DNA of 14,908 bases from an uncultured archaeon (GTDB lineage: Archaea > Asgardarchaeota > Lokiarchaeia > Sigyniarchaeales > Promethearchaeaceae), in assembly GCA_964513765.1 (NCBI GenBank), contig CAZEPC010000066.1, positions 1 to 14,908 of the forward strand. Direction: 5' to 3'. Positions within the stretch are counted from its first letter, which is position 1. The number at the start of each line of letters is the position of its first letter. Shown here piece by piece: positions 3,006 through 14,908 of this stretch. The notes under the pieces are model-generated. The model was not told the origin of the DNA. It made no database searches and was given only the letters and a program-made list of their open reading frames with translations. The translations under genes and the position numbers were made by a program.

Positions 3006-4619
3006 TTAGAATAACGAATCTAACCTATTATGACGCTTTTCAAAAAAAGTACTATGATATGTCTTCACAGGTACTTCACGTAAGAATTTTTCACTCAAAA
3101 TGGTCTTAGGAATATTTATATTTTGATCAGTATGAGGATTAGCAAAAGAATTATCAGGGAAATCTTGTAAATGAAAAATTTGATCCTTCTGATTTTGAGA
3201 GTGGTTAGTTTGAGGAAGACTTTTTTGTATTGGAGAGTACACTTTTTCTAATTTTTTCAGCTGATGAACCTTAAATTTACGTTGCAAATGTGCCAAAAAC
3301 ATTTCAAACTCTTGATTTCTCAGATGAGCCCTCAAATGAGCTTCTATCTGAGGGATTGGTAATACACAAGATTTGTTGATCTTGGAGATGGGAAGTAATA
3401 TCTCAGAAATTTCTTTGATTCTTTTTTCCAAACTTTCAATATCCCGCTTCCCAACCGTTTCAATCCTTAAGGGAAAATCATAGGGAGAGATTTGCAAATA
3501 ACTAGCTCCAAAGGAAAAATGATCAAAATTTGTGTATTTATGAAAGAAATAGTAAGGGGAAAATCCAGAGGTGTTTCTTCTTTTTCTTTTCTGATACAAG
3601 GTAGGAACTATATTAAAACAAGTGGTCCTCTGATTTGTATCTAATGTTTTATAAACCATTTCGGTATCGCAGAAACCCTTTAAGAGATCTCGGTATCTTA
3701 TATCATGAAATACATCAAGATCTTTGTGTTTAGATATTAAATATGGAAATGCACGTATTAATAAATCACGGAGCTGACGGGATTTAGTATCTTTGGTTAT
3801 GCCAATGAGGTTTACTCCTTTTTTCTCGCAAATAGTATAGAGTTTAAGATATTTTTTCACGAGTGAAGTATGCATTTTGCGAAGAAGATCTTGAGCGGTA
3901 AACGTACTCTGAAGGGGAGGGGGGATTATGCTCCCATCCAAGATCACGATATCGGGCAATTGAGGATCAGAATTCAGGAACGAAAGAAGTAAAGAGATCT
4001 CTGCATCTTGCCTTCTTAATCCTGCTAAAAGTCTACCGCCCCTATCAAGTACATCTCCATATTCCAAATGATAGGAATACATTTTACCTTCCCTATTTTG
4101 AGAAAAAGGAATAATTTCGGGCTTTTGTGCCTTAAAATTGTACATAATCCCTGCAACTTTGATAAGAGTTACTTGAGCCCCCAAGAATTTATGAAAGCCA
4201 AGACCTCCATCTACTGCTGCGACTCTTGTCCCTCTAAGATCTTCAATAGAAAAGGGGGTTATTTGGTGAGAAAAAGTTCGTGATCCGAATGGTTTAAAAT
4301 CTTTATTCTGATACGCTTGAAGATTCACCAATTTTTGATCACAAAAATAATGATGGAAAATCTTTAAAAAATCCTCCTTGTCTTGCATATGTTCCAAAAA
4401 TGGGTTTAAAGAGGATGAAAAAGATTTCTCTAGAATTTTTCTTTTCGAGTGCAGCACTTGATTGTAATTTGATTGGAGATCTGAAAGTTCCAGTTTTTTA
4501 TTTTCAGAAACCGGTGATTTTTTAGTAAATTTAATATGAGGGTGTTGAGGATCAATATGTGTTTCCATTTTCACATTAATATCCAAATTGCATCTTTTAA
4601 TAAAAATGACCCACTTCAT
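3006..4619 (-). CDS. NurA-domain-like nuclease family protein (divergent, with N- and C-terminal extensions)
   Basis: 537-aa ORF with ATG at 4619 (alternative ATG at 4568). 'RVAAVDGGLG', 'DIVILDGSIIPP' and 'LIGITKDTKSRQL' resemble the conserved NurA (PF09376-type) acidic motifs. The functional call rests on by-eye motif similarity only. Confidence 0.6.
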   Translation of the reverse strand: MKWVIFIKRCNLDINVKMETHIDPQHPHIKFTKKSPVSENKKLELSDLQSNYNQVLHSKRKILEKSFSSSLNPFLEHMQDKEDFLKIFHHYFCDQKLVNLQAYQNKDFKPFGSRTFSHQITPFSIEDLRGTRVAAVDGGLGFHKFLGAQVTLIKVAGIMYNFKAQKPEIIPFSQNREGKMYSYHLEYGDVLDRGGRLLAGLRRQDAEISLLLSFLNSDPQLPDIVILDGSIIPPPLQSTFTAQDLLRKMHTSLVKKYLKLYTICEKKGVNLIGITKDTKSRQLRDLLIRAFPYLISKHKDLDVFHDIRYRDLLKGFCDTEMVYKTLDTNQRTTCFNIVPTLYQKRKRRNTSGFSPYYFFHKYTNFDHFSFGASYLQISPYDFPLRIETVGKRDIESLEKRIKEISEILLPISKINKSCVLPIPQIEAHLRAHLRNQEFEMFLAHLQRKFKVHQLKKLEKVYSPIQKSLPQTNHSQNQKDQIFHLQDFPDNSFANPHTDQNINIPKTILSEKFLREVPVKTYHSTFFEKRHNRLDSLF

Positions 4620-4790
4620 TTTTCGATTTTTGCTAAAGAGATTTATCTATTTAGAAAACCAAAAATCAGAAGAATTCATAGTTTATATACAAAAATATGG
4701 CTGAGCTTATCCAAAAATAAAGAAAAAACGAAAGTAATTTAATATATCCTTAATTAGTACACTTGTTTTTCCTAGAAATGCAAAAAGATT

Positions 4791-4980
4791 CAAATTTCAC
4801 CCTGAAAAACACGAGACCAGATCTATAATCCACACTCTTTCCAAAATAAATACAAGTTCCACAATTCACACTCTTAATACCAAATTTCACACTACTCTAA
4901 ACATAAGTGACATGCACAAAAGGAAAAAAACAGGGGAATTTCCCTAGAATTCCCCTAATTCTCAATTCTTATTTCACCCT
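4791..4980 (+). repeat. Array of five same-orientation degenerate motifs, core TYCAC(A/C)CT
   Basis: The copies are caaatttcaccct (4791..4803), aatccacactctt (4827..4839), aattcacactctt (4863..4875), caaatttcacact (4881..4893) and atttcaccct (4971..4980). All lie in a non-coding region. Confidence 0.4.
4918..4956 (-). terminator. Terminator-like hairpin plus oligo-T, read on the minus strand
   Basis: A perfect 9-bp inverted repeat AGGGGAATT (4932..4940) / AATTCCCCT (4948..4956) has a 7-nt loop. On the minus strand it is followed by G-TTTTTTT-CC-TTTT (4931..4918). The stem is unusually GC-rich for this AT-rich spacer. Confidence 0.35.
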
Positions 4981-5324
4981 AAATTTCTATTCTGAATTCT
5001 TTTATACAGCAAAAATTATTTTTAAAATATTACGCAATCTCATAATTAGAATTTGCGCTTAGCTGTCTTTTTTTTTGGAATTCAGAATCATCATTGTCTC
5101 AACACGTTTCCACAGCCTAAAACATAAAAAGACCCACACCAAACAAAATGATGTAAAAATTCTGTATATATCAGAAAACATCATATTGACAAAAGGGTTT
5201 TTTATATTTTTATTTTACTTGACCTGCTTAAGGATCACCATTCAACTAACTTAAATTCACATATAAAAATCTTTATATTTGAAATTATTCTATGGAGATT
5301 TATATTTAAAAAACGTGGGTAATT

Positions 5325-6122
5325 TTAGCCCTTCAAGTGTCTCTTACAATTAATACAATACAGTACATTTGAGAAATATTCCCTCCTGCAATAAGGGCAT
5401 ACAAACCTATGTGTGCCGTCCTCCTTTTCAATCAAGCCCACACCATTCCCACCCGAGTTTCCTTTGATACTTAATTGAGATCCAATAGACCCATAAACTT
5501 TTAAAGATGCAGAATCTGACTTTTTTTCAGTCTTTCTCAGATCTGGTTTTTTTTCTTTAGAACTGGATTCAATTTCACCATCCAAAGCTTTCCTAGATTT
5601 GATTTTATAAGAAAGGGATAATACAATTCCTCCCAATAAAAATAGGGAAAAATGAATGAGAAATTGTATCCATAGAGTTGAAGAAAGAATATTCCATAAA
5701 TTGGGAGAATATTTTGATGTGAATTGCCAAAATAGAAAATAGATAAAGGAATAAGAAAACATAATGTTTCGAAATATACCTAATGCTTGCTTCTTTTCCA
5801 TAAAAAAAACACAAAATACAGACAAAACTAATATTAAGACTAAGTGGATAAGTAAGAGCATAGAAAACCATTCAAGGAAGAAAGAACCTTCCGAGACATT
5901 TAAGATCATATTGGTCCCTTGAAAAGGAGAATTTGATGAAACAGACAACCTCCCCCATCCCAAAATAACATAACTTGCTAATATACGGATAAATAAGGTT
6001 TGCATTGTATCTGCATCCAGATCAACATTTATAGGAGGATAATAAGCACCAAAGAGCCATAATATTAAGGAGATTACACCAAAATAAAGAAAGGGGATTA
6101 ATTTTATACTACGACTGTTCAA
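5325..6122 (-). CDS. Polytopic membrane protein with C-terminal cytosolic zinc ribbon
   Basis: 265-aa ORF. The start at 6122..6120 is TTG; the next Met is residue 40. There are about 5-6 hydrophobic helices in residues 1-170. A charged/Ser-rich linker follows, then 'CPYC..(12)..CINC'. A T6 tract follows the stop on the minus strand (5309..5314). Confidence 0.7.
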   Translation of the reverse strand: MNSRSIKLIPFLYFGVISLILWLFGAYYPPINVDLDADTMQTLFIRILASYVILGWGRLSVSSNSPFQGTNMILNVSEGSFFLEWFSMLLLIHLVLILVLSVFCVFFMEKKQALGIFRNIMFSYSFIYFLFWQFTSKYSPNLWNILSSTLWIQFLIHFSLFLLGGIVLSLSYKIKSRKALDGEIESSSKEKKPDLRKTEKKSDSASLKVYGSIGSQLSIKGNSGGNGVGLIEKEDGTHRFVCPYCRREYFSNVLYCINCKRHLKG

Positions 6123-8786: not shown

Positions 8787-9452
8787 TTAATCCTTTAACG
8801 GGCCTTCCACTGCCTCAAATCCATCTTTTGTAATTTTCGCAATCTGAACCCCATAGCCAGAACCGGCATCCCTCTGACGTGCAGCGGTTAAAGCTTGCTT
8901 GACTAATTCCACACCTTCATCGGTACTCAGATCTGGTTTCCAGTTACCCTCTAATACACCGAGTGCAAAGGTTGATCCGGAACCAAGACTGACGTAATTC
9001 TCTGAATCGGTCATATAACCAATAAAATCGATTGGGAAAAGTTTCCCGACCTTTTCTTTGTGATTATATCCGCCAACGATCATAAACGCATAAAAATAGC
9101 TGCGGCCCCTAAAGAGCATGTTTCGGACCACATTTGCCACATAATCTACCGTTGGTGTCTTATCAAATCGAACGCCCTCTAATCGGGACATCGCTTGGGC
9201 CTGTGAAACAACATATTGGCAATCTGCCACTCCACCCGCAATGGTTGCACCCGTATATTTATTTATTTGAAATAACTTTTGGGCTTTCTTTGTAGCAATC
9301 GTGAAACCTGCGGTTGCTTGGGACTCCGTGGCTAAAATCACACCATCCTTGATAATGATACCAATCGTAGTTGTACCAGTTTTTAATTTTTCTAGTTTAT
9401 CAATATCCGCTTGGCTCATATCTCTATTTTGTGCTGGGTTAATTTGATTCAT
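8787..9452 (-). CDS. psmB: 20S proteasome beta subunit (archaeal type) with N-terminal propeptide
   Basis: 221-aa ORF with an ATG start. 'KTG|TTTIGIIIKDGVILATE' gives the catalytic Thr1 after a ~26-aa propeptide. 'KKAQKLFQI', 'GSGS' and 'ARQRDAGSG' align along the full length with Thermoplasma-type beta subunits. Confidence 0.95.
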   Translation of the reverse strand: MNQINPAQNRDMSQADIDKLEKLKTGTTTIGIIIKDGVILATESQATAGFTIATKKAQKLFQINKYTGATIAGGVADCQYVVSQAQAMSRLEGVRFDKTPTVDYVANVVRNMLFRGRSYFYAFMIVGGYNHKEKVGKLFPIDFIGYMTDSENYVSLGSGSTFALGVLEGNWKPDLSTDEGVELVKQALTAARQRDAGSGYGVQIAKITKDGFEAVEGPLKD

Positions 9453-9520: not shown

Positions 9521-10516
9521 TCAAATAAAGAGCTTGATTTTTTTCGAAAGCCATTGAAAAGCTTGTAATAAATTTTGACCAGTTTTGGCTGAAACTTGAA
9601 ATATCCTATAATTATCAGTATATTCACTTGGATTGTATATATCTTCAACCAAATCTGGGGACATTGAATCATTCAAGTCCATTTTATTGGCGAGTATTAG
9701 CAGGGGAATTGGTTTATTTTTTTTGCTCTTTGAAGTTCCTCGGTAGTAAAACCTAAGAATCCGATTAAATTCGCTTTCGGAGTCCTCATGTTTTTCTTCA
9801 TCACCGGCCGAGTCTATCACATAGATTATTGCATTTGGATGTGATAAAACATGAGTCCATCGGTGTCGCAAGCGTTTCTGACCGCCCACATCATACACCC
9901 GCATCGACATCTGTTCAAAAACTAATTTTAATACTTGGGGCGCGAGCGTCGGTGCCGTATCCTCTTGAAAAACACCTGTAATTAACCTTTTAATGATAGT
10001 CGTTTTTCCGACTGCTTCAACCCCAAAAAATATAATTTGGGCAAGGCCAAGCTTTTCTTTCCCCTTCATTTTATTTATTAAAGTGTTCCTTAGCTGATTC
10101 ATTATCATCCCAATTTTCCTATTTGCTTCCACAGTTTTGAAATTTAGAGGGGGTTCTGCCTTCTCAAATGCCCGAGAAATGGAAGAAATTTTTTTAATTT
10201 GGGCTACAGTATTTTTAAAATCCACCTCAAATATTTTTGGATTTTCTTGTTCATCCAAAATTGCCGTAATCATGAGAACTTCACAACCATTAGGGCTTTG
10301 TTCGGAGGGTACCTCAAAAATAAAATTAACAAAATTTGCATCTTCGGCAATAATAATATCTTCAAAACAGCCATTTTGACTGTTGGATTCTATTATATTT
10401 GAGAGGATGCGTTTAATTTTGGAAGATGATTCAATTGAAGGCTGGGAATATTCAATAACCACACCCTCTTTTTCGGATTGTCGGGATAAAATCAACTGCA
10501 TAATAATATGTGACAA
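9521..10516 (-). CDS. Arf/Sar/SR-beta-like small GTPase with ~150-aa N-terminal longin-like (or roadblock-like) domain
   Basis: 331-aa ORF. The start at 10516 is TTG, with the first ATG at 10501. In the C-terminal half, G1 is 'GVEAVGKT', switch I is 'APTLAPQV', G3 is 'YDVGGQKRLR' (Arf-type DVGGQ), G4 is 'NKMD' and G5 is 'SAKTG'. The N-terminal half has a beta-beta-alpha-beta-beta-beta-alpha hydrophobicity pattern. Confidence 0.85.
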   Translation of the reverse strand: MSHIIMQLILSRQSEKEGVVIEYSQPSIESSSKIKRILSNIIESNSQNGCFEDIIIAEDANFVNFIFEVPSEQSPNGCEVLMITAILDEQENPKIFEVDFKNTVAQIKKISSISRAFEKAEPPLNFKTVEANRKIGMIMNQLRNTLINKMKGKEKLGLAQIIFFGVEAVGKTTIIKRLITGVFQEDTAPTLAPQVLKLVFEQMSMRVYDVGGQKRLRHRWTHVLSHPNAIIYVIDSAGDEEKHEDSESEFNRILRFYYRGTSKSKKNKPIPLLILANKMDLNDSMSPDLVEDIYNPSEYTDNYRIFQVSAKTGQNLLQAFQWLSKKIKLFI

Positions 10517-10527
10517 AACGTGCTTTA

Positions 10528-11607
10528 TTATTTTTTGCCTTTTCCTCTTTTCATTTTGTTTTTATTCTTTTTAAATATATGTTGAATCTTTTCTTTCTTT
10601 AAATTGGCGAGGTACAATCCCGATAACACAAGCAATAGTCCGAAAATGACTTGTAGGGTAATTTTCTCATCCAAGACGATCGCACCTGTTATTATTCCCA
10701 CAACAGGTTGAAGCATGGTAAGAATTGCAATTTTTTCAGAACCAATATTTTTATTAGAGAGAGCAAAAGTCCAAAGGATAAAAGCTAAGCCAACACAAGC
10801 CACCCCCAAGTAGACTAATAGCCCCCATTGTGCAGCACTGAGATCAGAGGCTTCTTCAACCAAGCCCAAAGATAGAGATAGAGGTAAAAGGAAACAAATT
10901 GCACATAATAGAATCGAAGCGGTTACGTACAAAGATTTCTCACTATCAGAGATCTGCTTTGTAGAAAATGTATAGGACCCCCAAATAGCGAAAGCCAAAA
11001 TAGATAATAAATCACCCACCAAATGTCCACCGTAGAGTTCTTGGCCTTCACGGAGAATGACTAAGGTGACCCCGCTAAAGGCTAAAAAAAGACCCGCGAA
11101 AAAAAACTTGGTCGGCTTTTTTTTAAGAAAAATAAAATTGAGGATTACCACCCAAAAAGTTTGGGTTTGCCCGATTATGGCTTGATTTGTGGCCGTAGTT
11201 TTTGTGATTCCGTAATATTGAATAATATACGCAAAAGAATAGAGAATCATTCCTGTAAAAAGAAATCTTTTGATATATTTTTTAAGAACCTTCAGAAATT
11301 TTTTGCTTTGCCCCGTAAAAATGATGTATAGTAAGATGAATAATACTCCAAATAGCGTCCTAATCGTAGTAAAATTAAGAGAGAATAAAGGATCTGGAAC
11401 CACCTTCTTTGAAAAAGCAAAAGTAGTTCCCCAAAAGGTCACCGAAAAAATCCCCGCGATATAATAAAAAATCCGATTTTTTCCAGATTCCGATCGTGTA
11501 TGATCTTTAGAAAGGTTATTTTTATTACTTTGGGCGTCTTCTTGAATATTATTTTGAATATCATTTTTTGTTTGGTTGTTTTGCACTGGAATCTCCTTCA
11601 GGAACAT
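10528..11607 (-). CDS. EamA/DMT-superfamily transporter (about 10 TM) with polar N-terminal extension and Lys-rich tail
   Basis: 359-aa ORF with ATG at 11607..11605, directly abutting the stop (11610..11608) of the upstream gene. There are two internally repeated 5-TM halves typical of EamA proteins ('FAFSKKVV', 'ALSNKNIGSEKIAILTMLQPVVG'). Confidence 0.8.
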   Translation of the reverse strand: MFLKEIPVQNNQTKNDIQNNIQEDAQSNKNNLSKDHTRSESGKNRIFYYIAGIFSVTFWGTTFAFSKKVVPDPLFSLNFTTIRTLFGVLFILLYIIFTGQSKKFLKVLKKYIKRFLFTGMILYSFAYIIQYYGITKTTATNQAIIGQTQTFWVVILNFIFLKKKPTKFFFAGLFLAFSGVTLVILREGQELYGGHLVGDLLSILAFAIWGSYTFSTKQISDSEKSLYVTASILLCAICFLLPLSLSLGLVEEASDLSAAQWGLLVYLGVACVGLAFILWTFALSNKNIGSEKIAILTMLQPVVGIITGAIVLDEKITLQVIFGLLLVLSGLYLANLKKEKIQHIFKKNKNKMKRGKGKK

Positions 11608-13746
11608 TTATTTCTTATTCTGCTTTTCTTGTTTTCCAATTTCTTTTTCCTGATTATCTTGCACATCTTTATAGGGTTCTTCTTCATAGTAGGAATCTTT
11701 TTTTACTTCTGTTTCCAAATCCTCCACTTCCCTAAGTACGGAAATAAGGTGATCTTTCTCCACTGTTCCATCGGGTATTTTGGCCAAATATGGATATTTT
11801 CCGGTTAAGTCCTCAAATTCTTTTTTATATTCATCCTCTTCCATATTTTTGATCTTTTCCACATCGCTTATGTCTATGCCATGCTTCTTATAGAGTTCTT
11901 TTAACTTTTTTTCTTGTTCTTCAGGATTTCCCACCACAATAGGAATTTGAATACTTGGCATCCAAAAACTATCATTAACATGGTTATAATTTACCATTGC
12001 CATAATCTTGAATTTCCCTTCCTCCGTTGGAACAAAAGCCGAATCAATATTAATTTTTTCATATGGTTTCAGCTTTCCTACTTTCACAATTCTACGTTTG
12101 ATCATAAAAGAATTGGGTACGAAGAAAGTTACTCCAACATTAGTTAATGTTCTTGAACTTGAATTCTCAATGAGTAAGACAACCCGATTTTCCACATCAA
12201 TTTCTAAGTTTCGGGTTAAAATAATTAATTCCATAAATAAGGGTAAGGGCAGTTCTTCCATCTCGAGGGTATATGAGGTTTCGACCAACGCTTTTATTTG
12301 TGGTAGATAATCGTTGTTAAACAGTTCTTTTTGCTTCTCCAAGGGTAAGGTTTCCTTATTCCTTTTCTCAATAAACATTTCAATGTAATTGTTTAAGAAT
12401 TTATTTACTTTTTTATCAAAAACTGCATGGCGTTCGGAAATACCTTCTACAACATCCTTCATATGAATATTTTTCAAATCTGAATCGAAGGATTCATCCA
12501 TTAAATTGAAAAGAAAACTCTTAATTGTTTCCTCGAGTGCGCCAATATTAAACTTAATGTTTTCAAATCGCTCTACCACTTCTCCAGGATTAAAATGCTC
12601 GCCTTCAATGAGAATATCCACCAACTCAAAATCATCATCAACTTCCAAGGCGAAATCAGATAAGGTAGTATGAACGTATTGAGAAATAAGATCATCAAAA
12701 TTTTGGCGCGCTTCCGAATGCCTCCTTTGAAATTCTTTTCTGAACCCTTCCAAGTAGGGGGTGACCTTCCCGCAATGTATTTTCATCAGATCTTTTTGAT
12801 AATCTCTGAATCTTTCTTCAATATTGCTTAACCATCTTTTTGCCGCATAGAAATCCTCCTTGATTTCTTGGGTATAAAAAGGTATTCTCTCATATTGGAT
12901 CTTAAGAGCTTTGAAAGGCTTTTTTTCCCTCATTTCCTCCAATAAGAACATAAGAGATGTTCCCAAATTATAGAAAGTAATTACTTGTTTCTTCAAGGTG
13001 ATGGCCCGCGCATCCGTCAAATCTTTGAGCTTAAGCTCTAATTCCTCCAATTCATCCGCGAAATAGGCGGGGTTATTGGTGGTAAAATCCTCTAAAAGGG
13101 CGCAAAATTTCTCTGCACAATCAGAAAGTGATTCTTCCGACTGAAAATCAACATGATATTCTTTTGCAAATTCTTGGGCATAATTTTTAGCCTGTGCAAA
13201 ATTTTTTTGAGCTTGGTAATAAAAACTTTGAGAATCATCTACTTGATAGGCATCTTTGGCCTTTTGGGTAAAAATCAAGCCGCTTAATTGGATATTTCGT
13301 ATTTTTAAAAGAGAAATCATTTCATTGTATTGTTGAGCTTGAAGATCATTATCCAATAAGGGAACGAGGAATTGTTCTATAATAATAGCAAGTAATCCAA
13401 GGTGCTTCCTTAATTTTTGAATGTCTGTATCTTCTGATAAAAAACTATCTAACTTAGTAATAACGATGAGATCAATCTGACGGCTTTCGGAGAGTAGTTT
13501 ATTAAAATTTTTATCAATTTCCAGCATTCTCTTTTGTATGGTGTTCTTGGATACGCTGTCATTAATTTCCTCAAATTTCCCTTGATATCCAAAGAGATCC
13601 AATAGAACATCCGTGAGCAAATCAAGAGATTCCGTATACCCGTTGGTAGTACCACATGAGAAACACTGCACTGTGGAACCTTTTGTAATTGGTAGATTGA
13701 CCCCGCAATTTACGCAAGGAAGGCTTGTTATAGACATTTTTATCAT
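11608..13746 (-). CDS. Hypothetical protein: N-terminal zinc ribbon, ~450-aa alpha-helical region, beta-sandwich (CARDB/Ig-like) domain, acidic tail
   Basis: 712-aa ORF with ATG at 13746. 'CVNC-x13-CFSC' lies at about 13654..13716. The middle is long and rich in helix-forming residues. An alternating-hydrophobic beta segment 'NRVVLLIENSSSRTLTNVGVTFFVP...GKFKIMAMVNYNH...IQIPIVVGN' lies at about 11925..12189. The C-terminus is rich in E/K/D. I recognise no named family. Confidence 0.8.
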   Translation of the reverse strand: MIKMSITSLPCVNCGVNLPITKGSTVQCFSCGTTNGYTESLDLLTDVLLDLFGYQGKFEEINDSVSKNTIQKRMLEIDKNFNKLLSESRQIDLIVITKLDSFLSEDTDIQKLRKHLGLLAIIIEQFLVPLLDNDLQAQQYNEMISLLKIRNIQLSGLIFTQKAKDAYQVDDSQSFYYQAQKNFAQAKNYAQEFAKEYHVDFQSEESLSDCAEKFCALLEDFTTNNPAYFADELEELELKLKDLTDARAITLKKQVITFYNLGTSLMFLLEEMREKKPFKALKIQYERIPFYTQEIKEDFYAAKRWLSNIEERFRDYQKDLMKIHCGKVTPYLEGFRKEFQRRHSEARQNFDDLISQYVHTTLSDFALEVDDDFELVDILIEGEHFNPGEVVERFENIKFNIGALEETIKSFLFNLMDESFDSDLKNIHMKDVVEGISERHAVFDKKVNKFLNNYIEMFIEKRNKETLPLEKQKELFNNDYLPQIKALVETSYTLEMEELPLPLFMELIILTRNLEIDVENRVVLLIENSSSRTLTNVGVTFFVPNSFMIKRRIVKVGKLKPYEKINIDSAFVPTEEGKFKIMAMVNYNHVNDSFWMPSIQIPIVVGNPEEQEKKLKELYKKHGIDISDVEKIKNMEEDEYKKEFEDLTGKYPYLAKIPDGTVEKDHLISVLREVEDLETEVKKDSYYEEEPYKDVQDNQEKEIGKQEKQNKK

Positions 13747-13886: not shown

Positions 13887-14381
13887 TCAATGGGTAAAAT
13901 AACAGAAAATTTCATCATCGGAGATTTCCTTTGGACAAACGAACCCATAACGAACAAACTGGACAATCTCGTCCCTTGGGACTTCTCTCAAATTAGCCTC
14001 CCCATAGCCTTTTGTAATAGTCCCATCTGGCTGTAATATTTTCACATTTACATAATCATTTTCTGGAACTGCTTGAATTATTTTTCCGCTCTGACCTTTT
14101 TCAAAGGATTTGAATTCTGCCATAACCGGATCACCTAATGAAGATATTTCAACATCAAAAATATCCTTAAAGCGGATTATTTCACCGTTCTTAATTTTGG
14201 GTCGGGTGAGTTTTCCCTTGTAATTATATTCATCCTCCAATTCTTTTTCAGAAATGAAAAGACTTGATTGATTTTGTTTAATTCTAACATGAACATTCCT
14301 TGACCCTTTTGATTCATCATTTGGATTAGTATATTCTGTATCTAAAATCCAATGGTCTATTTGATTTGATATATATGTCAT
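13887..14381 (-). CDS. Stand-alone GluRS/GlnRS C-terminal anticodon-binding-domain-like protein (tRNA-synt_1c_C-like), no catalytic domain
   Basis: 164-aa ORF with an ATG start. The C-terminus 'VNVKILQPDGTITKGYGEANLREVPRDEIVQFVRYGFVCPKE..IFCYFTH' closely resembles the archaeal/eukaryotic-type GluRS C-terminal signature ('..G.aE..l..l..GdvVQFERfGFvRvD...vf.y.H'). No HIGH or KMSKS motif occurs in this ORF or its neighbour. Confidence 0.65.
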   Translation of the reverse strand: MTYISNQIDHWILDTEYTNPNDESKGSRNVHVRIKQNQSSLFISEKELEDEYNYKGKLTRPKIKNGEIIRFKDIFDVEISSLGDPVMAEFKSFEKGQSGKIIQAVPENDYVNVKILQPDGTITKGYGEANLREVPRDEIVQFVRYGFVCPKEISDDEIFCYFTH

Positions 14382-14383
14382 AA

Positions 14384-14908
14384 CTACAATCCAATTTGTG
14401 AAAATAAACTTTCTGCAATATTTTTAGATTGGATAAAAGATTCATCCCAATGCTTTTCCAATTGAGCTACTGGATTAATTCTTTCGCCTTCTATATTTAA
14501 ATCAAAATGGTCATTTACATTTAAAACAACTCCAAATTGAATTTTTTGGTCAGAAGGATTAACTCTTATCCTGCGGTTACCCCTTTCTCCATCTTTTCTT
14601 TTTGATTCGAAGATTTCTAAATTCAAAAGCTTGGGATTTTCCAAATTCTCTTTCCATAACTCCAGAGGCGTAAGGAAACTTCGTAATTCGTAAAATTTTT
14701 CCTCGTTAGGCATTTTAAAATCATAAATATGATTTAATCCTAACGCTCTAATTGGAGTTTCTCTTAAAATCTTAAAAACACTCATTGCCAAATCTTTCAA
14801 TGGTCCAAAATATGGCTCTTTTGAAGATTTAAATTCGCATCTCTCTTTGGTCATTTCTATTTTAGCCCAATCATCTATTTCAAATCTTACAATTTCTTTA
14901 TGAATTAA
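14384..14908 (-). CDS. Hypothetical protein, probably 5'-truncated by the window edge (weak resemblance to the TIGR04255 family)
   Basis: The track ORF starts at ATG 14854. The same frame stays open for all 18 codons up to the window end (..LIHKEIVRFEIDDWAKIE-MTKER..). Its stop lies 2 nt from the start of the downstream gene. 'IRALGLNHIYDF' is reminiscent of the 'RiGLRYiN' motif. The family call has low confidence. Confidence 0.55.
   Translation of the reverse strand, partial: LIHKEIVRFEIDDWAKIEMTKERCEFKSSKEPYFGPLKDLAMSVFKILRETPIRALGLNHIYDFKMPNEEKFYELRSFLTPLELWKENLENPKLLNLEIFESKRKDGERGNRRIRVNPSDQKIQFGVVLNVNDHFDLNIEGERINPVAQLEKHWDESFIQSKNIAESLFSQIGL

Follow-up and report, generated by a model that had tools for sequence, protein, structure and literature searches.

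A Promethearchaeia-restricted zinc-ribbon and Ig-like protein, its tight link to an EamA transporter gene, and a neighbouring longin-Arf GTPase gene

Do three tightly packed genes of an Asgard archaeon, one of which encodes an Arf-like GTPase, form a unit in which the GTPase recruits an adaptor or coat to a membrane? The question is posed by the minus strand of a 14,908-bp contig (C66, analysed in its entirety and referred to here as the window), part of an assembly of 5.4 Mb and 80% completeness, where the genes for a 712-residue protein (P712), an EamA/drug/metabolite transporter (DMT)-superfamily transporter (EamA) and a longin-Arf GTPase follow one another. A first-pass annotation of this DNA had likened the string to Arf-recruited adaptor or coat subunits or, at minimum, to a GTPase-associated membrane module. 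P712, soluble and acidic, belongs to subfamily A of a small family restricted to Promethearchaeia. The reading that we favour, with a probability of about 0.6, is that P712 is an Asgard-restricted soluble scaffold with a conserved Ig-like domain as its probable interaction surface, translationally coupled to a DMT exporter, and that the longin-Arf GTPase is a recent and incidental neighbour. On this reading, the three genes would have come together in one lineage on a backbone that is itself conserved, and they would not form a conserved machine of three parts.

The arrangement of the three genes on the minus strand was confirmed at every coordinate. The stop codon of P712 directly abuts the ATG of EamA (11607-11605), leaving a gap of 0 nt, and a second TAA directly follows the stop codon of EamA. 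From that stop to the GTPase start there are 11 nt if TTG 10516 is used or 26 nt if ATG 10501 is used, the latter being the choice of the public gene call (P0026, 326 aa). The tight link between P712 and EamA is real and conserved in the closest relatives. EamA is found downstream of P712 in four loci only, all on the closest contigs (46-61% identity), namely the window, L026, L011 and L010; the two genes abut in the window, overlap by 20 nt in L026, are 24-33 nt apart in L011 and have a deaminase gene between them in L010. In L026, which is the nearest relative (61% identity), EamA begins with an ATG situated within the 3' end of the P712 gene, in another frame (2434-2453), and it was at this overlap that the automatic gene call set a spurious opposite-strand open reading frame (ORF). 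Given this overlap of 20 nt and the abutting stop and start in the window, P712 and EamA are probably made together. We suggest that an EamA/DMT exporter gene became translationally coupled to P712 in the clade of the source genome, and that P712 could be a cytosolic partner or regulator of the exporter, a role suggested by the gene coupling only.

The same packing can be read as an accident. If the neighbours had no functional link, P712 would be a lineage-specific structural protein and its coupling to EamA a by-product of genome compactness in one small clade. As a baseline for packing, the 155 contigs of the source genome that reach 10 kb (2.6 Mb) were run through a crude ORF caller: 20% of same-strand neighbours are no more than 30 nt apart, and genes this close form 21 runs with three or more members; the tight packing of the three-gene string is uncommon, not exceptional. 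The four P712-EamA contigs are also close kin and not independent, and the intervening deaminase gene of L010 fits an accidental arrangement as well. Set against this, translational coupling classically shows itself in arrangements such as the stop-start abutment of the window and the 20-nt overlap of L026, and the P712-EamA pair survives in L010 and L011, where the upstream gene for glutamyl-tRNA synthetase (GluRS) and the downstream gene have both changed. We consider a purely accidental coupling unlikely.

The packing had also been taken to leave no room for internal promoters. Archaeal promoters, built from a transcription factor B recognition element (BRE) and a TATA box, are compact, can sit in upstream coding sequence and often yield leaderless mRNAs, and the claim is not safe for such an organism. 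An A/T-rich stretch, AAAAAATAATAAA, lies approximately 27-39 nt upstream of ATG 10501, such stretches being common at 35% GC. A scan for bacterial-type promoters and terminators, a type of scan unsuited to archaea, gave results below or near shuffle expectation. The GTPase gene could be expressed from a shared transcript or from a compact promoter of its own.

To place the string in its wider context, subfamily-A loci were gathered from metagenome contigs and genomes, giving 11 distinct loci; the relatives' genomes are mostly incomplete metagenome-assembled genomes (MAGs) and close kin, so that synteny counts are not independent. A narrower-alignment locus search for P712 returned 3 loci, all of which duplicated genomes already found. 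In nine of the 11 loci, the gene directly upstream of the P712 orthologue, on the same strand, is GluRS, either in full length or as its C-terminal piece only, at a distance of 70-260 nt and down to 27% identity. The full enzyme is found in L013, L014, L015, L016, L017, L022 and L023, and a free-standing C-terminal piece stands in its place in the window and probably in L026. On the other side, the slot after EamA holds the GTPase in the window only. In L010 it is taken by an opposite-strand gene and in L011 by the gene for a 601-aa polytopic membrane protein (3520-5325), followed by the proteasome beta subunit gene. This 601-aa protein has no Pfam family and no homologue in the source genome; as a polytopic membrane protein without GTPase similarity, it was ruled out as a hidden relative of the GTPase. 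The proteasome beta subunit gene (psmB) sits 68 nt downstream of the GTPase gene in the window, marking the far edge of the variable slot; in L011, L016 and L017 it likewise lies downstream of the P712 orthologue, the genes in between being different. Downstream of the more distant P712 orthologues come Rce1-like and PTA_PTB-like genes and, some kb beyond them, the proteasome beta subunit gene. Instead of a three-gene unit, the loci show a backbone that is conserved around a slot of variable content. The three-gene order, the conservation of which the first-pass annotation had proposed as a check, is not conserved, the GTPase following EamA in the source genome only. As a model for Promethearchaeia, the backbone would run from GluRS to a P712-family gene, a variable slot and, in some members, the proteasome beta subunit, with the GTPase occupying the slot in the source genome only.

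In L015 (8329-10337), L016, L017 and L022, which belong to a genus with P712 in every genome, the genes after P712 encode an Rce1-like CPBP intramembrane protease and a PTA_PTB-like protein. A multi-pass membrane protein, EamA or Rce1-like, follows P712 in two separate clades, the gaps before the Rce1-like gene being 68-91 nt.

The features of the window discussed here are collected in Table 1.

Table 1. Positions of the genes and protein parts in the 14,908-bp window
Feature	Positions	Strand	Details
P712 gene (712 aa)	11608..13746	-	ORF; TAA stop at 11610-11608
P712 N-terminal 4-Cys zinc ribbon, residues 8-36	13639..13725	-	C11xxC14 and C28xxC31
P712 helical body, residues 37-500	12247..13638	-	DSSP helices in AlphaFold2 model
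P712 Ig-like beta-sandwich, residues 501-606	11929..12246	-	nine strands at 504-605 in AlphaFold2 model
P712 acidic, partly helical C-terminal tail, residues 607-712	11611..11928	-	AlphaFold2 helices 609-683
EamA/DMT-superfamily transporter gene (359 aa)	10528..11607	-	PF00892; TAA at 10530-10528
Longin-Arf GTPase gene	9521..10516	-	Arf PF00025; likely start ATG 10501 (326 aa), alternative TTG 10516 (331 aa)
Longin domain, GTPase residues 1-145 from ATG 10501	10067..10501	-	AlphaFold2 and Foldseek
Proteasome beta subunit gene (psmB)	8787..9452	-	PF00227 at 7.8e-48
Free-standing GluRS C-terminal (anticodon-binding) piece (164 aa)	13887..14381	-	PF20974 and NF003169

The distribution of the GTPase outside the window was followed from its own side. 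An adjacent GTPase gene was seen in one of approximately 10 orthologous P712 loci with a visible downstream side. The GTPase orthologues with 54% and 41% identity come from short contigs on which neither EamA nor P712 is present, and the best genomic orthologue (40%) is found in the closed 6-Mb genome G009, which has no match to the P712 family. Conversely, genus g9 carries P712 in 54 of 54 genomes, with no GTPase match at E ≤ 1e-25 in the three genomes searched. Since the GTPase occurs without P712 in G009 and P712 without a GTPase match in g9, the phyletic patterns of the two are uncoupled in the genomes searched, and the description of the string as a GTPase-associated membrane module is not supported; the orthologues of the GTPase sit in other contexts. 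Only P712 and EamA stay together in relatives, and an Arf-recruited coat or adaptor is therefore unsupported; nothing found ties the function of the GTPase to P712 or EamA. In G009 (L067, 7733-9277), a 179-aa gene with weak Ras similarity lies 39 nt upstream of the GTPase orthologue on the same strand, and the two may constitute a GTPase pair.

P712 has nothing above threshold in Pfam, NCBIfam or PADLOC. An exhaustive search of 1.84 billion representative proteins revealed 22 relatives; a word-indexed homologue search, swamped by low-complexity words, yielded just 3-4 proteins. Named relatives that carry a member of the family include 'Promethearchaeota archaeon Bin_342' and 'Promethearchaeia archaeon BLK3-3.bin.73'. 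The AlphaFold2 model, built from an alignment of eight family members, has a mean predicted local distance difference test score (pLDDT) of 82.3 and a predicted template modelling score (pTM) of 0.61, and no transmembrane segment was predicted. The four parts described by the first-pass annotation, a 4-Cys ribbon, a helical body, a beta-sandwich and an acidic tail, were all recovered from motifs, model and charge, and its limits for the sandwich (about 11925-12189) lie essentially within those assigned here (11929-12246). The zinc ribbon comprises short strands at residues 9-10, 17-18, 25-27 and 34-36, and its cysteines are conserved in the full-length rows of alignment A1. It gives weak, sub-threshold matches to the RNA polymerase P/RPB12 ribbon, and insignificant hits to such ribbons (E ~0.1) were all that a P712 profile found among PDB sequences. 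The helical body, with a net charge of -28, contains thirteen helices of 16-52 residues between residues 37 and 490, a 4-residue turn at 276-279 being left out of the count. It is made up of an N-terminal helical region followed by copies of a repeat of approximately 90 residues, the first clear (326-421) and the second weak (422-500), and from the DSSP helix pattern we infer a rod-like shape for this part in the model. The sandwich is the most conserved part of subfamily A, with the invariant columns concentrated in it (F541, F542, P544, N545, F547, W595 and P597), and a sub-threshold Transglut_C match was found in three of 13 family members. The tail (net charge -10) is variable or absent in more distant orthologues, and its model confidence falls to a pLDDT of 51-62 over helices 609-683 and below 50 from residue 680. 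We read P712 as a generic scaffold or adaptor between proteins, of which the conserved sandwich would be the main binding surface.

The P712 family comprises two subfamilies, and profile-profile comparison revealed that the homology between A and B spans residues 9-500 only, that is, the ribbon and the helical body. Members of subfamily B (approximately 710 aa; for example G000:C253 in L020, 1858-3984, and those of loci L057-L063 and L066) are without the sandwich and instead carry approximately 3.5 tandem copies of the ~90-residue helical repeat. P712 residues 326-421 align with these repeats at hhalign probabilities of 95-98%, with 422-500 as the weak second copy. An archaeal S-adenosylmethionine (SAM) synthetase gene adjoins the subfamily-B gene, within ~1.4 kb, in seven of the 10 loci examined, lying directly downstream on the same strand in six and on the opposite strand in one (L063); this adjacency was not seen in L019, L058 and L059.

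These neighbourhoods allow a further reading, in which the family would provide scaffolds or assembly factors for neighbouring housekeeping enzymes, GluRS for subfamily A and SAM synthetase for subfamily B, with EamA and the GTPase incidental. The persistence of GluRS upstream in nine of 11 loci holds across family-level divergence, SAM synthetase recurs beside subfamily B, and the clade of the source genome keeps even a free-standing C-terminal piece of GluRS in that position. The gaps of 70-260 nt to GluRS, however, imply no coupling, and the adjacency could equally be an inherited order around essential genes. GluRS and SAM synthetase have nothing specific in common, L010 and L011 lost the adjacency to GluRS yet keep the P712-EamA pair, and neither the PDB profile search nor Foldseek gave a sequence or fold link of P712 to tRNA or synthetase cofactors. 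A housekeeping role of this kind appears quite unlikely.

The resemblance to a coat was addressed by comparing the P712 model with the PDB using Foldseek, the best 50 matches being considered. The best matches concern the sandwich alone and are to subunits of the translocon-associated protein (TRAP) at 1.6e-5, followed by complement macroglobulin (MG) domains, the transglutaminase C-terminal barrel, the ASH domain of OCRL and BBSome subunits (~8e-4); a viral fold library returned just generic Ig-like domains (DUF11, BIG2 and TRAP-beta type). Whole-chain matches to COPI, Integrator, TRAPPII and STAT have template modelling (TM) scores of 0.09-0.18 and root mean squared deviations (r.m.s.d.) of 20-43 Å, which means that there is no real superposition. 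The COPI coat chain 5a1u_E, for example, is retrieved at an E value of 7.6e-5, but with a TM score of 0.10 and an r.m.s.d. of 41 Å. No Sec23/24 chain and no isolated adaptin appendage occur among the best 50 matches, and P712 has no Adaptin_N-type, coatomer, appendage or Sec23/24 match in Pfam. Only helices follow the sandwich in the model, with no platform (alpha/beta, TBP-like) subdomain, and there is no alpha/beta (vWA-like) trunk such as Sec23/Sec24 would have. As modelled, the helical body is not a HEAT or ARM solenoid, since its helices are 16-52 residues long and arranged in ~90-residue repeats. An adaptin- or coat-like fold is not supported for P712. Of the coat or adaptor organisation that had been proposed, the succession of a helical part and a sandwich stands, and the solenoid, the appendage platform and a coat-like superposition do not.

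Compared with known systems, P712 resembles the large subunits of adaptor complexes and COPI in the order of its parts, a long helical region and then an Ig-like beta-sandwich. Those subunits, however, are built from HEAT-type pairs and carry a platform subdomain, and they partner Arf GTPases, whereas P712 has ~90-residue repeats, no platform and no conserved link to an Arf gene. The plan of Sec23/Sec24 (zinc finger, vWA-like trunk, beta-sandwich, helical and gelsolin domains) is not matched. From ESCRT (endosomal sorting complex required for transport) neighbourhoods of archaea, Ig-like domains termed 'adaptin appendage-like' have been reported, some of them together with zinc ribbons (10.1101/2024.02.06.579148). 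The proteins described by Makarova et al. (10.1101/2024.02.06.579148) share with P712 a zinc ribbon, an uncharacterised N-terminal domain, an Ig-like sandwich and a cytosolic location; they carry a TBP/platform domain, whereas P712 has none after its sandwich, the comparison being by description only. Pfam and NCBIfam scans found no Vps4, ESCRT-III or other ESCRT gene in the window. A preprint warns that likeness in repeat scaffolds between Asgard and eukaryotic proteins is readily convergent (10.64898/2026.10.28.762692).

With these comparisons in hand, a GTPase-regulated membrane module can be weighed. It would have the GTP-bound longin-Arf protein recruit P712 to the membrane at or near EamA, as Arf recruits adaptor and coat subunits. 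The tight packing of three genes on one strand, the helical part followed by an Ig-like sandwich, the Foldseek retrieval of COPI (5a1u_E), TRAPPII (7u05_A), the BBSome and the Rab8-binding ASH domain of OCRL, the archaeal appendage-like domains in ESCRT neighbourhoods and the location of a second P712-family gene 1.4 kb from a longin-Arf homologue in G003 all speak for it. The retrieved COPI, TRAPPII and Integrator chains nevertheless have TM scores of only 0.09-0.14, and the repeat type and missing platform described above count against an adaptor. The adjacency to the GTPase, moreover, was seen in one of the ~10 orthologous loci and in none of eight further paralogue loci, the phyletic patterns are uncoupled, and in the GTPase a longin domain takes the place of the amphipathic helix of membrane-binding Arfs, many Asgard Arfs (AArfs) being taken as not membrane-acting (PMC11914678). 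Recruitment of P712 by the GTPase is on this evidence very unlikely.

Several observations nonetheless weigh against the reading of P712 as a scaffold coupled to a DMT exporter with an incidental GTPase neighbour. The partnership of P712 and EamA is drawn entirely from gene coupling in four related contigs. The COPI, TRAPPII, BBSome and Integrator chains were retrieved by Foldseek at E values of 1e-4 to 1e-3 and probabilities of at least 0.9, and the modelled P712 may resemble trafficking scaffolds at the level of architecture. Finally, a subfamily-B gene on G003:C4 lies 1.4 kb from a longin-Arf homologue that is 28% identical, a co-location that is more than chance expectation with approximately four copies of the GTPase subfamily per genome. 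The G003:C4 pair is in divergent orientation with an AIR-synthase-like gene between, it was noticed post hoc, and a longin-Arf gene next to subfamily B was not repeated in the eight further paralogue loci. Read generously, the family would consist of Asgard-specific, membrane-proximal scaffolds that act as longin-Arf effectors, a partnership of which the window and the G003 locus would preserve two remaining traces, and P712 would link a GTP switch to a DMT exporter, a proposal that we regard as highly improbable. If true, it would mean a prokaryotic Arf-type GTPase engaging an effector made of a helical rod and an Ig domain at a membrane protein.

EamA itself matches PF00892 at 2.5e-37 (128.6 bits against a cut-off of 28.2) in two stretches corresponding to the repeats, and TIGR00950 (2.4e-22) and YddG (9.8e-13) are matched in NCBIfam below their cut-offs. 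Hydropathy revealed several segments of transmembrane grade across residues 74-336, the helix count being approximate. The two EamA repeats and the many hydrophobic segments are shared with EamA/DMT exporters of the YddG and EamA/YdeD types; the NCBIfam equivalog scores all lie far below cut-offs, and a Q/N-rich N-terminal extension of 47 residues is specific to this copy. These first ~47 residues (11467-11607, minus strand) are Q/N/K-rich and of low complexity, and the alignment with orthologues begins only at residue 48-49. Since a GTG at codon 8, near the 5' end, is the sole alternative canonical start in frame within this stretch, the extension is apparently translated.

The GTPase is, by profile and pairwise sequence scores, a member of the Arf family. 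Its G domain (residues 147-327) matches Arf PF00025 at 1.3e-32 (113.1 bits against a cut-off of 22.3) and has the G motifs GVEAVGKT (GxxxxGKT), a T in switch I, DVGGQ, NKMD and SAK; the best sequence relatives of solved structure are Arl3, the Asgard 'Arf GTPase' 8oul/8ouk, Arl2 and Arf1, all of them Arf or Arl proteins. The N-terminal domain gave no longin-related Pfam match at E ≤ 1 in eight members, and a profile of it against PDB sequences returned coiled-coil noise only. Its model (pLDDT 81, pTM 0.79), with a beta-beta-alpha-beta-beta-beta-alpha-alpha topology, matched the FLCN-FNIP2 complex (6ulg_N, 3.7e-5), NPRL chains of GATOR1 and the Lst4 longin at TM scores of 0.54-0.65, and the Lokiarchaeota Roadblock-Longin protein 8yqg at 0.58-0.60. 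The best structural matches all involve longin domains, and the label 'longin' is supported by structure prediction. The EamA, longin and Arf-like labels of the first-pass annotation were thus upheld by Pfam and by the longin model.

The topology of this domain is that of the longins of FLCN-FNIP2, GATOR1 NPRL2/NPRL3, Lst4 and C9orf72-SMCR8 and of 8yqg; there is no detectable sequence similarity to these regulators, and the longin domain is here fused in cis to a GTPase. Unlike usual Arfs, the protein has no amphipathic helix in the usual place: its N terminus is the 145-residue longin domain, the last helix of which (121-144) runs into the G domain, no separate amphipathicity analysis having been made. 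With the Asgard ArfR/AArf GTPases it shares the G domain and its motifs, and an N-terminal longin is a reported AArf variation (10.1101/2024.02.28.582541; PMC11914678); its own orthologues are rare, comprising two metagenome contigs and a few genomes. Longin-bearing Asgard Arfs have been mentioned before, and such N-termini were taken by the authors to imply that many AArfs are not membrane-acting (PMC11914678). The protein is of a kind already described in Asgard archaea and, on its modelled structure, adds one more supported example of the fusion. Elsewhere in the genome, longin-type domains were found fused to Arf-like G domains (C618, C294), with a 350-residue non-GTPase tail (C289) and alone (C514). 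These paralogues share 'YYFEIPSDWxRG' in the β4-β5 loop, the Arg-Gly being missing in the orthologue group of the GTPase in the window.

The remainder of the window fits the origin of the DNA, and the source genome is a Lokiarchaeia-type Asgard MAG. In Pfam and NCBIfam scans, the window encodes a Roadblock-RING protein, a Ras-like GTPase, NurA and an archaeal proteasome beta subunit, and the genome contains at least 40 small-GTPase loci. Residues 60-164 of the GluRS piece match GluRS 458-566, with 34% identity to the GluRS of a relative; the full GluRS of the source genome is on contig C72, at the contig edge. Upstream of the piece, a 156-aa ORF (14384-14854, minus strand) ends 2 nt before it in another frame and has no family match and no second copy in the genome. 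A defence-system reading of the locus was ruled out, the PADLOC scan of the locus having given no match.

Asgard archaea are being examined for forerunners of eukaryotic membrane trafficking, and a real operon of an Arf GTPase and an adaptor would be an important find; the locus examined here is not such an operon. The analysis leaves a protein family that is modelled with confidence, is restricted to Asgard archaea and has no model in databases. Its two subfamilies are built on a ~90-residue helical repeat; in one of them an Ig-like domain is conserved and, within one clade, the gene is translationally coupled to that of a DMT exporter.

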